Assembly (NCBI GenBank): GCA_964016885.1
Contig: OZ024765.1
Coordinates: forward strand, 17,298,001-17,362,000
DNA: 64,000 bases
Direction of reading: 5' to 3'
Source of the DNA: Eledone cirrhosa
Taxonomy: Eukaryota
Position numbers and translations under genes: made by a program. Positions 8,671 through 61,700 of the stretch are shown here, in pieces. A model generated the notes under the pieces. The model was not told the origin of the DNA. It searched no databases and was given only the letters and a program-made list of their open reading frames with translations. How positions within the stretch are numbered: the stretch's first letter is position 1; the number at the start of each line of letters is the position of its first letter.

Positions 8671-8830
8671 TAACGAAGGAAATGTGGTAAGGAACCAAGT
8701 GGACCATAACGCACCGAAGTACTCAATACTTAGGGTAGTAGAGTGGGTAATAGGAACGAGTAGGACCCCGACGGCTGAGCTCAAGCCGTTTCGACGGCTA
8801 ATTCTGGACTAAATTTTAGTCCAGATTATT
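8671..8830 (-). mobile_element. Short dispersed fold-back element, family E (half-hammerhead); copies at 9522-9715, 12025-12223, 34064-34233, 54701-54900, 58744-58984 and fragments at 6315, 60615, 62365
   Basis: Conserved ~150-bp body gtcgaaacggcttgagctcagccgtcggggtcc...catttccttcgtt next to (TA)n, with a variable 5' inverted duplication. Confidence 0.85.
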
Positions 8831-8971
8831 ATAACTATATATACCCAGGGAGTGTAACCCGCAGTTACTGTAGGTTGATCCAGGTGAATACTCGATGTTT
8901 AGGTTCACGTCAGTGCCAAGGTGTAGAGCTGAACAGTCTAATATAATAATACAAAGGACTATTGGTTAAGC

Positions 8972-9180
8972 CTTTATTACGTTTATTGGTTGGTGACGCG
9001 GGTTTCGCTACTGATCAGTTAAAGGTTCGATCTGCATTGATCTAGCCCGACTCTGGATTCAGTCATTATTACTACAGAGCTCCGACGAGCTTTTGATTCC
9101 AGAGTCGGGCTAGATCGATACAGATCGAACCTTGAGCTGATCAATAGCGAAACGCGCATCACCAACCAATAAACGTAATG
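8972..9180. repeat. Imperfect ~90-bp inverted repeat with degenerate HHR-like cores
   Basis: 8972-9063 versus 9094-9180; CTGATCA..gcGAAAc..(g/a)TC on each arm. Confidence 0.65.
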
Positions 9181-10264
9181 AAGAAGTAATCATTCGTCCG
9201 GCAGTTTCTGTAGAGGGTCGGATGCCAAGCATGGAGTTACGGCCCTTGCCATTCTGAGTCCAAATCCCGCCGAGGTTAACTTTGCGTTTCATCCTCACGA
9301 GGTCGATAAAATAAAGCACCAGTAATACACTGGTGTCGATTTATTCGACTTTCCTCTCCCCATAAATTGCTGGCTCTGGACCTATACTAGAAACCATTAA
9401 ATATATATAAATATATATATATATATATATGTGTGTGTGAGTATATATATATATATGTATATATATGTGTGTGAATATATATATATATAAATATATATAT
9501 ATATATATATATATATATATATAGGAACAAGTAAGACCCCGGCGGCAGAGCTCAAGCCGTTTCGACGGCTATTTCTGGACAGAAATAGCCGTCGAAACGG
9601 CTTGAGCTCTGCCGCCGGGGTCATACTTGTTCCTATTACCCACTCTACTACCCTAAGTATTGAGTACTCTGGTGCGTTATGGTCCATCTGGTTCCTTACC
9701 ACATTTCCTTCGTTATATATATATATGTGTGTATATATATATGTGTCTATATATGTGTGCATATATATATTTATATGTGTGTGTGTATGTATATATATAT
9801 ATATTTATGTGTATATATATGTGTGTATGTATATATATATGTGTATATGTATATATATATATATGTGTATGTATGTATATATATATATATGTTTGTATAT
9901 ATATATGTGTGTATGTATATATGTGTGTATGTATATATATATATATGTGTATATATGTGTGTATGAATATATGTGTGTATGTATATATATATATATGTGT
10001 ATATATGTGTGTATGAATATATGTGTGTATGTATATATATATATATATATGGGTGTATATATATATATATGTGTGTATATATATATATATATATGTGTGT
10101 ATGTATATATATATATGTGTGTATATATATATATATATATAAAAATGTGTATATATATATATATGTGTGTATATATATATATATATATATATATATATAT
10201 ATATATGTGTGTGTGTGTGTGTGTGTGTGTGTGTGTGTGTAAATATATATATAATATTTTTTTA

Positions 10265-56817: not shown

Positions 56818-58428
56818 ATGTATGTATGTCATGTGCGCTTAACTCTTGTTGGAGTCGTAGGCGAACCGACGTCTTGCATATTTTATACTTAGTGCGGCCT
56901 AATCTCTCCCCAGAGCCTTGAATAGAGCCTATTTCTTCCAGCGTGTGTGTCTGTCTGTGTGAGAGAGAGAGAGAGAGAGGAGGAGAGAGAGAGAGAGAGA
57001 GAGAGAGAGAGAGAGAGAGAGAGAGAGAGAGAGAGAGAGAGAGAGGGGAGATAGAGGGAGAGAGGAGAGGGGAGAGAGAGAGAGAGAGAAATGGGGAACA
57101 GAGAAAAAGTTATAGAGGAAGAATCGAGCTCAGTTGTGGGTTGGTACATGATACAGAAATCAAAATGATAAAAGGAAAAGAGTAAAGTGGGTTCCGGAAA
57201 AGTTTAGGGAGAAGGAGGAAGAGCTAAGAAAGAGATATAGAGGAAGAATCGACCCCAGTATTTAGTAGGTAGTTTTTTTTTCGAGATCAAAAATATAAAA
57301 ACCCCAAATTGACCTCGGCGGGATTTTAACTCAGAGAACCGCGAGCATGGACTAATACCGCAAAACATTCTATCTGACGTTTTAATAGCTCTCCAAATTC
57401 CCCGCCTTCATCATCTACACACGTTTGTATGGTACTGTACCTCCTGATAGAGTCGTAGGGATTCCTGTATTGACATACGGCGTTTCTTGGGCATTTTAAA
57501 ACCTGGCGGAGCCCATACCACTCCAGGCCCGAGTACAGCAGATTTCGTCCAGAGAAAGTTAGAAAGTGAGAGAGAGGAAATGAAGAAGAGATATAGAGAA
57601 ATAATTGTTTCTACTTTAGGCACAAGGCCAGCCATTACCCCAGTGTATTACTGGTACTTTATTTTATCGACCCCGTAAGGCGTAAGGATGAAATTGAAAT
57701 AATTGTTTCTACTTCAGGCACATGGCCAGCAATTACCCAGTGCATTACTGGTACTTTGTTTTATCGACCCCGTAAGGATGAAAGGCAAAGTCAAGAGAAA
57801 TATTCCACCTCAGTACTACACTGAAATTTTTTTTATCGACCTCCAAAGGATGAAATGCAAAGTTGACTACGGTGAGTTTTGAACTGAGAGCGCAGACTGT
57901 CGGAACGAATGCGATAAATCCCACATTCTGAGGATTCTGTCAATTCGTCGCCTACATACAACCCCCACTCCACCTTATATATATATATATGCGTAGAAAT
58001 GTCCGTGATCTCCAGCAGACAACTGGTGAAGTGAAATTAACCCCAATTCATGCTTTCTTTTTATTTATAAATACACTTCATCCAGCAACCACGCAGCCCT
58101 GTTTCTTATATATATATATATATATATATATATATATATATATAGAGAGAGAGAGAGATAGAGAGAGAGAGAGAGAGAGAGAGAGAGAGAGAATTAGTAT
58201 ATCTACCAACATATGTATACATATGCATACCTATCCAAGCAAATATATAGGTTTTGTCTTAGTAACTTCTGCAAGGGGATGCAGAACAATTATATGAAAG
58301 ACGTATAATAAGAAAATTATAAAAATTAACTTACTTACTAATTTTACATCTTTCATATATATATATATATATATATATATATATATATATATATATATAT
58401 ATATATATATATGTATATATATATATAT

Positions 58429-58733
58429 AGTTATGTAATAAACAACATAAGAACATTATTTCATTTACCAAAGGTTTCAACACAGACGAGCTTGACACAA
58501 ACGTCTGAAATCGGTCGTCAGAATGAAAATTTATTTAAAACGTTTTAATCCGTTTTAAATAAATACATATTCATTCTGACAAATGATTTCAGAGGTCTGT
58601 GTCAGGCTCGGCTGTCTTCCTGAAACCTTTGGTAAATGAAATAATTATCTTATGTTGTTTATTACATAACTAAAAAGCTCTGCAGTCTACATATACCACT
58701 CTCCCTTCCTTTACCTTTCCTCGGAAATACTTC
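58429..58733. mobile_element. Fold-back HHR element, family D
   Basis: Minus strand 58460-58527 reads ttcatt CTGACGA ... tGAAA cctttgg TA aatgaa. The + mirror at 58570-58640 has a mutated core (CTGACAA). The tail is homologous to 56171-56260. Confidence 0.75.
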
Positions 58734-61700
58734 ATATATATATAGGAACCAGTATGACCCCGACGGCTGAGCTCAAGCCGTTTCGACGGCTAATTCTGGA
58801 CTAAATGAAAATTTGTATCCTGACCAGGATAAAAATTTTCATTTAGTCCAGAATTAGGCGTCGAAACGGCTTGAGCTCAGCCGTCGGGGTCCTACTCGTT
58901 CCTATTACCCACTCTACTACCCTAAGTATTGAGTACTTTGGTGCGTTATGGTCCAGCTGGTTCCTTACCACATTTCCTTCGTTATATATATAAATATATA
59001 TATATATGGTGGCGATGTATTTGTTTTGCAAGGATTTTGATATGAAATCGCCTGTTGAAACAGATATTATTGGCAGGGTCGGACGCCATGCTTTGCAGCA
59101 AAGAGTTACGGCCCTTTATGATCTGAGTTCAAATCCCGCCGAGGTTAACTTTGCCTTTTACCGATACGGGGGGTCGATAAAATAAAGTACCAGTAATACA
59201 CTGTGTATTTGCTGGCCTTGTGCCAAAAGTAGAAACAATTATATATATATATATAAAGAAAAAGAGATGAAATCGAAAATGGAGGGTCTGTGGTTTTTCT
59301 CACATCAGTGAGAAAAACCACAGACCCTCCATCTCAACTCTACTTTTGAAAAGCAGAAGAACTGCGAAACCGGTAAAGGAACCAAATAAATATATATATT
59401 TAAAAAAAAAAAAATAAGACTCCAGTTGCATTTTCGATTTCATCTCTTTTTCTTTATACTTTCACTCGTGTAGGACACCTCGGTTATTTTTCAATTTGTA
59501 AAAAAAACCTCACTTTCTAATATATATATATATATATATATATATATGAGAGGTATAGAGATTGTTTTAGCGAGAAGCTAACAGCATTCTATAACATATA
59601 TGCGACTATAACGTCAAGATGGGAAAAGTAGTTAACGTAGGATTTAGGAAAAATAATTCAAACTCATCTCAAAAGAGAATCAGGATATAAATTCATCCAC
59701 AGAATTTAGTGAAATCCAGGGAAAAATCTATAGACCTTTAACTCATGATAAAATAAAGTTTAAAACACTTATCCTTCAATTTGGAATAACATCAAATGCT
59801 CTCTGTATAGTCTTAAAAGACTATTTCATGAAAACTTTCAGTGGAGATGCTCACGGTTGGATTTCATTCATCAGCAGAGCTCAACAGAAAAAAAAATATA
59901 TATATATATATATTTAACTGTTGGTAATTCAATGATAAACATTGATTGCCAACCAAATTATGTATAAAAACATAAATATATACTGAAGCGAAAAACAAAC
60001 ACAATCAAACAGCGAGTGTTTTGTTACTATTTTTGGCAATAGCCCGATAACATGACACACCCCAAATATCACAATATATATATATTATTTTTTTGTTTTT
60101 GTCGCATCGCTAGTCTCAAGAGCAGATCGATAATGCAGTCGAGTCAATAATTCCTATTAATGACACGGAACCAATCCTCTGCGAAACGCCGAAACACGTG
60201 TAAAACTCTAATACATGTAAAGGTAACTTCATGTCTTTCTTACATACATACATACATATATATAAACAAACCGAGCATTATAATAAATGTTCGGTAAACC
60301 GATACGTGCATATATATATGTGTGCACTTGTTTTTGAAAACAGCTGATTGTATGCATGTAAGTAAATATTCTCTCTATCTGATAGTTTGTAAACTTACAT
60401 AGATCAATAACTGAGTATAGATACAATGTATTATCACCATCTAGAAACGATCGTAAAGCAGTGAAGTATATCTCTAATGACTTGATTTTTTATTTCATTG
60501 TTTTAACTTATATCATGTCTCTGGTTTCCTTTTAATGTTTTATTGTTTTCTGAGATTTACCTTAACCTACAACATTTTCAACACATGGATTACATTGAGT
60601 TCTTCATACAGAATAACCCCGATGGCAGAGCTCAGGTTGAACATTTTCCTATTACCCACTCTACTACCCTAAGTATTGAGTACTCTGGTGCGTTATGGTC
60701 CATCTGGCTCCTTACCACACCTTCGTTATATATATATATATATATATATATATAATGATGAAACATATATATATATATATATATATATATATATATATAT
60801 ATATAATGATGAAACATATATATATATATATATATATATATACATAAAATGGTAAAACAATTTATATATATATAAATATATATATATACATAAAATGATA
60901 AAACAATATATATATATATTGATAGATAGATAGAGAGATATATATAATTAACATTTGGATACGAGCTTACATCTGAAAGCGCATATATGAGGAGCTTGAG
61001 ATTCGCGAATGAGAAACGAACATAATATATCGTTCCTCGAGCTGAACGGCGGTGAAACATATGTAATGTATATATGATGCAGCACTGCTTCTTTGTTTTG
61101 AGAAAAAGAAAGCAAAGAAAGAGAGACAGAGCGATTTGCCAAGAAATGTTTCACCACTCTTCTCAAATATATAGAATAAAATTTTACAAATATTAAATAC
61201 AAATTGTAATACATACATACATATATATATATATATATATATATATATATATATATATATATATATATAATATATATATATAGAGAGAGATTTTAAGTAA
61301 ACAGAGAAGACGAAGAGGCGGTGGTAAAAATGTTATTATTTTTAGTTTTACGCTTGGGGGTGGGGGTTGGCGACATATATATATATATGTGTATGTATAT
61401 ATGTAAAAGATTAAAATAAAATATATATATATATATATATATATATATATATATATATATATATACATACATATGTATATATATATACACACACACACGT
61501 ATATATATATATGTATATATACATACATATGTATATATATATACACACACACACACGTATATATATATATGTATATATACATACATACATATATATATAT
61601 ACACATACATACATATATATATTTACATATATATATATATATATGTTTATATATATAAATATATATATATATATATATATATATATATATATATATATAT

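Follow-up and report, generated by a model that had tools for sequence, protein, structure and literature searches.

Penelope-like elements (PLEs) are retrotransposons for which head-to-head inverted copies and tails have already been described. The role of hammerhead ribozymes in endonuclease-bearing PLEs and the origin of the inverted repeats are stated to be open (PMC8557442), and in vivo evidence for PLE hammerheads is stated to be absent (PMC4209133). A U3-A8 pair is a published covariant of the PLE hammerhead (PMC4209133). PAc, a Poseidon element of Anolis, cleaves both target strands in vitro, and two internal starts of reverse transcription flank its tail; no RNA reads were found at its hammerhead site, and cleavage proved dispensable in vitro (PMC11167929).

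The repeat compared here, family E, occurs in a 64-kb stretch of Eledone cirrhosa DNA (hereafter the window). Its common 3′-end motif has six matches in the window (8672, 9714, 12026, 34065, 54701 and 58983), against a chance expectation of 0.05, and all six adjoin (TA)n, as an earlier note on this DNA had stated. The fold-back positions given in that note were recovered at 8814, 9580, 12166, 34183, 54841 and 58822. Its description of six near-identical copies needs qualifying: identity to the reference unit is 92–95%, but at least three subfamilies are represented, with subfamily B accounting for four of the six. The turning points do differ between copies by some bases, but four of the six fall inside one 12-nt zone. 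The features are as follows, with negative positions counted from the long outer end of the element (0).

6321..6355, minus strand: further fragment, decayed hammerhead 3′ half
8672..8814, minus strand: copy 1 long arm, 3′ end at 8672, 5′ end at -142, subfamily B
8815..8826, plus strand: copy 1 inverted-arm remnant of only about 12 nt, read from the sequence
9523..9580, minus strand: copy 2 short (tail-less) arm, -137 to -80, older subfamily type
9580..9714, plus strand: copy 2 long arm, -134 to 0
12026..12166, minus strand: copy 3 long arm, -140 to 0, subfamily C
12166..12224, plus strand: copy 3 short arm, about -135 to -80
34065..34184, minus strand: copy 4 long arm, about -117 to 0, subfamily B
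34181..34233, plus strand: copy 4 short arm, about -130 to -80
54701..54841, minus strand: copy 5 long arm, -140 to 0, subfamily B
54842..54901, plus strand: copy 5 short arm, -139 to -80, blunt junction
58744..58822, minus strand: copy 6 short arm, -158 to -80
58823..58983, plus strand: copy 6 long arm, -160 to 0, subfamily B
58841..58852, plus strand: copy 6, hot zone of 5′ ends (-142 to -131), putative RNA 5′ end
58855..58890, plus strand: copy 6, type I hammerhead 3′ half (stem II 3′ strand, GAAA, 6-bp stem III, palindromic loop, GUC, stem I 3′ strand)
58904..58983, plus strand: copy 6, 80-nt tail between short end (-80) and long end (0)
60646..60728, plus strand: further fragment, tail only
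62328..62425, plus strand: further fragment, older solo short end reaching -175, with the stem II 5′ strand and without the core

The strand running from GAAA through stem III and GUC to GGGGUC was found in 12 arms or fragments, and in copy 6 the predicted hammerhead cut lies after 58885 (position -98). All six copies stop short of the 5′ core at about -183; the longest ends at -160, which bears out the remark that even the longest copy lacks it. Within the element, AT follows both the short and the long end. Among the 150 of 350 matches listed, an Rfam scan of the window gave only microsatellite-driven miRNA matches below gathering score.

Family E, consisting of the pLTR and an 80-nt tail, forms the 3′ end of an autonomous PLE of the Hydra clade. 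The repeat is present in 38 of 50 ORF-bearing loci, where 719-aa ORFs are intact. The single ORF begins 93 nt past the long end and encodes a reverse transcriptase (RT) with a C-terminal GIY-YIG domain; it carries RLRWR at 35 (with R for the K of RWK), DKT at 117 (versus DKG), YRDDG at 348, CxCX5C at 572, YIG at 606, and CxxC at 670 with CxH at 698 in place of CCHH. The set RLRW, DKT, YRDDG, CxCX5C, YIG, CxxC and CxH agrees with the published Hydra definition (PMC8557442). A Pfam scan of this ORF and of a neighbouring-family ORF called no domain; the top homolog of the family E ORF carries PF01541. The architecture is that of endonuclease-bearing PLEs: tandem pLTRs in coding units of 3,542 bp, inverted 5′-truncated copies and an 80-nt tail at one end. 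Genome-wide the insertion target is (TA)n, with at least 22,032 long-end and 16,713 short-end junctions. The repeat recognised in the earlier note is real, but its place at a PLE end, the known inverted copies and tails of PLEs and the clustering of turning points at two sites had all been overlooked. Two other assignments were rejected: the RT beside locus L030 belongs to another PLE family with its own pLTR and 36% identity to the family E ORF, and a non-LTR retrozyme is at odds with tandem units that are coding and 3.5 kb long and with short copies that are inverted and coreless.

Longer family E copies contain a full hammerhead with a UUGANAA core and a stem II of about 60 nt. The proposal of a 5′-truncated hammerhead with a very long stem II is therefore right about the missing half and wrong about the core, which is not CUGANGA; the suggested search for gacccc-CUGANGA would have failed for that reason. 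The alternative of a different RNA motif finds no support. Across the genome, core variants with A8 give 3,510 and 1,208 matches, versus 45 with G8. We disfavour reading CUGAGAAG as C3-G8 with N7 deleted, because position 7 varies (G, U, A) and A8 is constant in the U3 subfamilies. Subfamilies A and C have the U3-A8 core and fit the three-stem type I motif of YUGANRA / GAAA / NUH with a 3-8 pair. The core of subfamily B is C3.A8, a mismatch where the motif requires that pair; a few B-type copies carry U3, and B has amplified autonomously despite this core, to 18,656 arms. For the young subfamily A the unconstrained minimum-free-energy prediction is the hammerhead itself (-23.2 kcal/mol; stem I probability 0.975), and the fold predicted for B is not a hammerhead. 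Stem III is nevertheless predicted to be more stable in B (-7.1 vs -4.9 kcal/mol), as is its dimer (-30.7 vs -26.3 kcal/mol). Among 12 closely related copies, none of 19 stem pairs shows a two-sided (compensatory) change, and an Rfam search of the full motif returned no hammerhead match.

Most arms end well short of this core. Whereas 37,635 arms hold -131 to -112, only 4,844 hold -145 to -126 and about 4,763 include the core at -183; hardly any are lost between -145 and -196. Two copies (L243 and L263) start at -135 and -141 and then continue into the ORF, and in a second PLE family 13 of 46 arms end at -2 to +1 relative to the A of a TTTTCAT motif shared with family E. The first base of the hot zone, at 58841, is the A of TCATTT, which we take to be initiator-like. 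Among the long copies with the ORF, the 5′ end could be measured in 14, and none of these starts in the zone or at -97. Contigs of two runs, which are of unknown kind, possibly from the source sample and not independent, again show a step in depth near -140 as well as the two (TA)n ends; the repeated step argues against an assembly artefact. The cliff at -142 to -131, inside stem II, is probably the RNA 5′ end, and an RNA beginning there would account for the half ribozyme in most arms.

A second accumulation of 5′ ends coincides with the predicted cut. Subfamily A has 535 arms starting at -97, compared with 17 at -103 and 72 at -94/-95, the two control positions counted. Inspection of 22 insertions with this start confirmed 20 as true truncations, and in 15 of the 22 both arms start at -96/-97. 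Altogether 134 double-ended palindromes with both arms starting at the cut occur among 15,634 subfamily A arms. Within the first 50, both arms lie exactly at -97 in 45, with C17 excluded, and 20 have no spacer. By an arithmetic estimate this coincidence is about ten-fold above independent draws, and one template end was thus usually common to both arms. Double-ended cut-site palindromes number 63 per 18,656 arms in subfamily B, whose core is mismatched; such ends are about three times rarer there than in A although B has the more stable stem III. Even so, B still shows an excess at -97 (425 versus 162 in raw counts, both inflated by indel variants). Family H replicates the spike weakly (70 at its own cut site versus 42 at the control). 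The pattern likely records in vivo hammerhead cutting of the element RNA, as judged from the positions of copy ends.

Both accumulations could instead reflect stalling of the RT on an intact long RNA, at structure or bound protein around the base of stem III and in upper stem II. The sites are suggestive, as -97 is one base from the stem III 3′ strand and the predicted stem II domain contains the cliff. However, the ends omit C17 and match the cut to the base, the more stable stem III of B goes with fewer -97 ends, the two arms stop jointly far more often than independent stalls would, and almost no arms are lost from -145 to -196. We therefore regard stalling as unlikely.

The junctions bear on how the two arms arise. 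An inverted arm was found in 72 of 99 family E copies and ends at -78/-80 in 63 of them, so that the outer ends of the palindromes are fixed at two positions, 0 (long end) and -80 (short end). At the fold-back, 97 of 124 mapped arm ends lie within -142 to -131 and two lie beyond it. The 62 junctions comprise 56 distinct triples, three of which are seen three times each and across reference classes. Thus, fold-backs arise anew at each insertion, as had been proposed, yet non-randomly, clustering at two sites. No untemplated G excess, as from cap copying, was seen in the 62 copies. A 3′ splice site at the cliff was considered and rejected, as the junctions have no common upstream exon sequence. 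Post-insertion central deletions of palindromes could produce some arm asymmetries.

Could the second arm be self-primed from the first, by cDNA snap-back or on an antisense template as put forward for rotifer PLE palindromes (PMC3846280), with the short end made by a later nick? Both arms belong to the same subfamily class in 48 of 56 copies, the -97 end is common to both, and 18 of 62 junctions have overlaps of 2–6 nt, all of which would fit. Yet loop-less perfect palindromes with blunt or 1-nt junctions (20 of 62, besides the spacer-free cut-site palindromes) leave no hairpin loop, and in 10 of 62 copies the tail-less arm reaches beyond the 5′ end of the long arm by more than 10 nt (the reverse in 3 of 62), a length that neither arm could have templated. 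Self-priming is accordingly a distinctly improbable source of the second arm.

Subfamily B raises the question of how the cut is made. An RNA starting near -142 would carry the substrate half alone and might be cut in trans, an option raised in the earlier note, by a full-length partner through a near-palindromic 18-bp stem III duplex, with trans rather than cis cleavage making the -97 ends. The predicted homodimer is stable (-26 to -31 kcal/mol), B yields -97 palindromes despite C3.A8, two insertions (L310 and L319) join a -97 arm to a cliff-zone arm, and PLE hammerheads have been described as dimer-active. Against this, the subfamily A monomer is predicted to fold into the hammerhead unaided, and the few B-type copies with U3 could explain the B signal in cis. 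We consider trans cleavage as the source of these ends very unlikely. A reading of family E as a hairpin element or small DNA transposon whose terminal inverted repeats are inherited, MITEs included, would suit the prevalence of roughly 200-bp palindromes in (TA)n but is vanishingly improbable, given the junction diversity, the asymmetric ends and a repeat continuous with the RT ORF in tandem units.

We hence favour, as moderately probable, an account in which the end of a Hydra-clade PLE inserts into (TA)n as head-to-head palindromes whose RNA templates end at the cliff and at the hammerhead cut. Each palindrome would derive from two reverse-transcription events, primed at the long and the short end; both cDNAs would be extended off the 5′ end of one and the same RNA and then joined. 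Transcription starting inside stem II would give an RNA with the substrate half alone and thereby the more than 35,000 half-hammerhead arms. Read-through RNA of tandem units may fold the full U3-A8 hammerhead and be cut after GUC, its 5′-OH product giving the arms that start at -97, and uncut read-through RNA may template long and full-length copies. The enzyme would nick both target strands and jump end-to-end between the two cDNAs, adding 0–6 untemplated bases. A more speculative extension, which we hold to be doubtful, is that the stem II start shields the message from 5′ self-cutting, that the spike is the first in vivo footprint of a PLE hammerhead, and that the C3.A8 subfamily (more than 18,000 arms) is cut in trans by intact relatives via the palindromic stem III duplex.

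Tens of thousands of young family E insertions amount to a 5′-end map of template RNAs. In this map the cut site is marked by a spike precise to the base and the likely start by a cliff; the two arms are coupled, and a natural mutant of the core allows comparison. Such end-counting is applicable to any PLE family. New here are PLE arms starting at the predicted hammerhead cut, with both arms doing so in 134 insertions; our literature search, which covered papers available without subscription, found no report of PLE copies starting there.

Hydra-clade PLEs, including the cephalopod Hydra-1_Obim, have the same C-terminal GIY-YIG domain, RW, DKT, CxCX5C linker, CxxC and CxH as family E, and the same (TA)n target, hammerhead near the 3′ end, inverted 5′-truncated copies and tail (PMC8557442). 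Judged by eye, Hydra-1_Obim is a different family. Whereas all 26 Hydra hammerheads tabulated (File S2, PMC8557442) have CUGANGA, a loop 2 of at most 10 nt and a stem III of 3–4 bp, family E has U3-A8 or C3.A8, a stem II domain of about 60 nt and a 6-bp stem III; its tail is 80 nt rather than 30–40, and its unit 3.5 kb rather than mostly below 3 kb (PMC8557442). PAc resembles family E in its two internal RT starts around the tail, an AT-rich target cut on both strands and a pLTR hammerhead, but belongs to another clade, its ORF starts inside the ribozyme rather than 93 nt past the long end, and it has no reads at the cut site where genomic copies of family E start (PMC11167929). The Cercyon PLE hammerheads of Schistosoma have U3-A8, type I topology, a palindromic loop 3 and opposite-strand pairs 100–700 bp apart, as in family E; they are minimal and without stem III, in contrast to the 6-bp stem III and long stem II seen here (PMC4209133). 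In the R2 retrotransposon, the cut site of the HDV-like ribozyme is likewise reported to match the 5′ junction of genomic copies (PMC3774820). R2, however, is another element class with another ribozyme, and there the cut defines the full-length element, whereas in family E it gives rise to a minority of tiny, dead-end palindromes.

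Family E, a group of six fold-back repeats in the window, shares a 3′ end that is matched there six times (0.05 expected by chance) and always directly adjoins (TA)n. With the last base of this end set to 0 (the long end) and nucleotides counted upstream in element sense, the five palindromic copies have a long arm reaching 0 and a short arm reaching −80 (the short end). The six turning points lie where the earlier note had placed them. Its description of the copies as folded back holds for five, which are head-to-head palindromes, but the copy at 8671 keeps only 12 nt of a second arm. 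As that note had also observed, the hammerhead 5′ core is absent from all six. Diagnostic bases assign four copies to subfamily B, one to C and one to an older type. More fold-back repeats between (TA)n runs (490–861, 8945–9180, 11870–11910, 51111–51336 and 59256–59389) look like the ends of other Penelope-like element (PLE) families, and at least 10 such clusters occur among the loci examined. The window also contains decayed PLE ORF fragments at 28502–28696 and 39506–39628 (34% and 46% identical to the E protein) and a tandem array at 21185–26270 (period ~310 bp), which inverts near 23,740 to form a 2.5-kb perfect palindrome that may be real or the product of misassembly.

Family E is almost certainly the end of a Hydra-clade PLE. 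Upstream, longer copies comprise ~1.3 kb of 3′ UTR and then reach a GIY-YIG domain; of 50 ORF-bearing loci from a protein search of the 3.0-Gb genome, 38 contain the repeat. Tandem units of 3,542 bp carry intact 719-aa ORFs, with the start codon at +93. The motifs of the protein (RLRWR, DKT, YRDDG, CxCX5C, YIG, CxxC and CxH) are given as defining features of the Hydra clade (PMC8557442), and inverted 5′-truncated copies with a tail on one side are among the traits described for PLEs. Homologues among the matches listed are ~38–54% identical and almost all unnamed. Genome-wide, 22,032 long ends and 16,713 short ends form an exact junction with (TA)n. A reverse transcriptase (RT) first met beside locus L030 was rejected as the partner of E; it belongs to a different PLE family with its own pLTR. 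At L114:3–2474, an intact 823-aa RTE-like LINE ORF adjoins an E element.

The inversion had been proposed to arise anew at each insertion. Exact matches to the long end were taken in order along contig C1, and 99 of the first 100 could be classed: 72 as inverted, 24 as solo and 3 as direct, with 63 of the 72 inverted arms ending at −78/−80. The 62 mappable copies in this set show 56 distinct junction triples, none occurring more than three times, which bears the proposal out. Of their junctions, 20 are blunt or have a 1-nt overlap, 18 have an overlap of 2–6 nt and 24 contain inserts. Turning points do differ, but they are clustered: 97 of 124 arm ends fall within −142..−131, hereafter the cliff, and 2 lie further upstream. 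Genome-wide, 37,635 arms hold −131..−112, 4,844 hold −145..−126 and ~4,763 hold the core; ~87% of arms stop inside a 14-nt stretch, and hardly any do so in the 50 nt that follow. Because the cliff falls inside stem II, most copies contain only half a hammerhead. The A of TCATTT, an initiator-like motif, marks its edge. Two copies starting at −135 (L243) and −141 (L263) run into the ORF. Long ORF copies whose 5′ end could be measured number 14 once rows at the edge of a locus (8) or of the reference (3) are set aside; none of them starts in the cliff zone, and the 62 mapped copies show no excess of cap-derived G at their junctions. Family R, an abundant PLE with intact ORFs of ~800 aa (L061–L072, e.g. 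L065:3829–6294), has 28,350 first-look candidates and a protein with Hydra-type motifs, 36% identical to that of E; its short arms stop at the A of TTTTCAT, a motif shared with E, in 13 of 46 arms, with 2 at +13 and the others running further.

The missing hammerhead half lies at about −183, in longer copies. Of the gacccc-CUGANGA strand suggested by the earlier note, a 5′ core was indeed found upstream, but mostly as UUGANAA, after ACCCC. Exact matches after ACCCC comprise 3,510 UUGANAA, 1,208 CUGANAA and 45 YUGANGA, 4 of these C3-G8. The U3-A8 core of subfamily A is a published PLE hammerhead covariant (PMC4209133); subfamily B has C3.A8. An old subfamily (L281–L300) has UUGAAGA (U3.G8), and thus the 3-8 position in E has been U-A, C.A and U.G. 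The unconstrained lowest-energy fold of a natural subfamily-A unit is the hammerhead (−23.2 kcal/mol; stem I probability 0.975); that of B is an alternative in which GAAA occupies the loop of a hairpin (−27.9 versus −23.7). No two-sided pair changes in the stems occurred among 12 copies compared, and an Rfam search with the full E motif returned no hammerhead match.

A second concentration of ends lies at −97, the base directly after GUC and hence after the predicted cut. When subfamily-A arms are tallied by the base at which their match is lost on the upstream side, 535 fall at −97, versus 17 at −103 and 72 at −94/−95; G-run indel variants make up about one tenth of the first 100 −97 arms listed. 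The first 30 loci with such starts represent 22 insertions, 15 with both arms at −96/−97; the other seven are two indel artefacts, two that pair a −97 arm with a cliff arm, two solo copies and one other. A palindrome pattern search found 134 −97 insertions per 15,634 subfamily-A arms, against the ~12 that we calculate for independent draws at ~4% per arm. In the first 50, both arms lie exactly at −97 in 45, and the spacer is absent in 20 and a single A/T in 14. Subfamily B gave 63 per 18,656 arms (both arms there in ~40 of the first 50) and a raw count of 425 versus 162 at the control, an excess that is not zero. Stem III is predicted to be more stable in B than in A, so RT stalling would leave more −97 ends in B; the opposite trend is found. 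In family H, another fold-back family, the excess is weak, with 70 arms starting at the cut site versus 42 at the control, and palindromes turn a few bases 5′ of their hammerhead; the short ones at 54447–54645 and 43536–43739 keep a complete small CUGANGA hammerhead. At L315/L316 (G000:C1:88.82 Mb), the bases that immediately follow the cut site recur in one junction as several short repeats, as though the RNA 5′ end had been re-copied repeatedly by RT.

A two-RNA-end mechanism is, in our judgement, the probable origin of these copies. The protein of another PLE has been shown to nick both strands of AT-rich DNA and to start reverse transcription at two internal sites bounding the tail (PMC11167929). 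In E, AT follows both ends (0 and −80) within the element and could allow short pairing with a (TA)n primer. Two cDNAs primed at 0 and −80 would run off a common RNA 5′ end and then join end to end. The 200-bp palindromes, which are the common form, would come from RNA starting near −142, those of ~115 bp from read-through RNA that was cut, and the long copies from uncut read-through RNA; transcription start sites within the PLE pLTR are known (PMC2377424, PMC8557442). The ribozyme would trim tandem transcripts, and would strip the coding RNA's 3′ end of its priming sites. The arms of one copy fall in the same subfamily class in 48 of 56 cases, with private variants hardly ever common to both arms (1 versus 31). 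In 10 of 62 copies it is the short arm that extends further 5′, and in 3 the long arm; simple snap-back cannot yield the former without later deletions.

Subfamily B was autonomous, since its lineage-specific changes over 615 codons are 30 synonymous and 4 non-synonymous (37 and 6 in A). Divergence from the column majority is 0.46% for A copies and 1.96% for B copies; both comparisons used 24 A, 12 B and 6 C alignments out of 77. A few B-type copies have U3. The success of B suggests that efficient cleavage is unnecessary for the spread of the element.

Neither the class of element nor the inverted structure, tail or U3-A8 core is new. Our literature search found no report of the feature combination of E, its 80-nt tail or a C3.A8 subfamily, nor, above all, of cleavage being read from where insertions end; Fig. 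S2 of PMC11167929, on genomic ends and outside the scope of that search, may bear on this. The tail of E measures 80 nt, compared with the 30–40 nt described for PLEs (PMC8557442). All 26 published rows of Hydra PLE hammerheads have CUGANGA and short stems (PMC8557442), and the core, stem II and stem III of E therefore constitute a variant.
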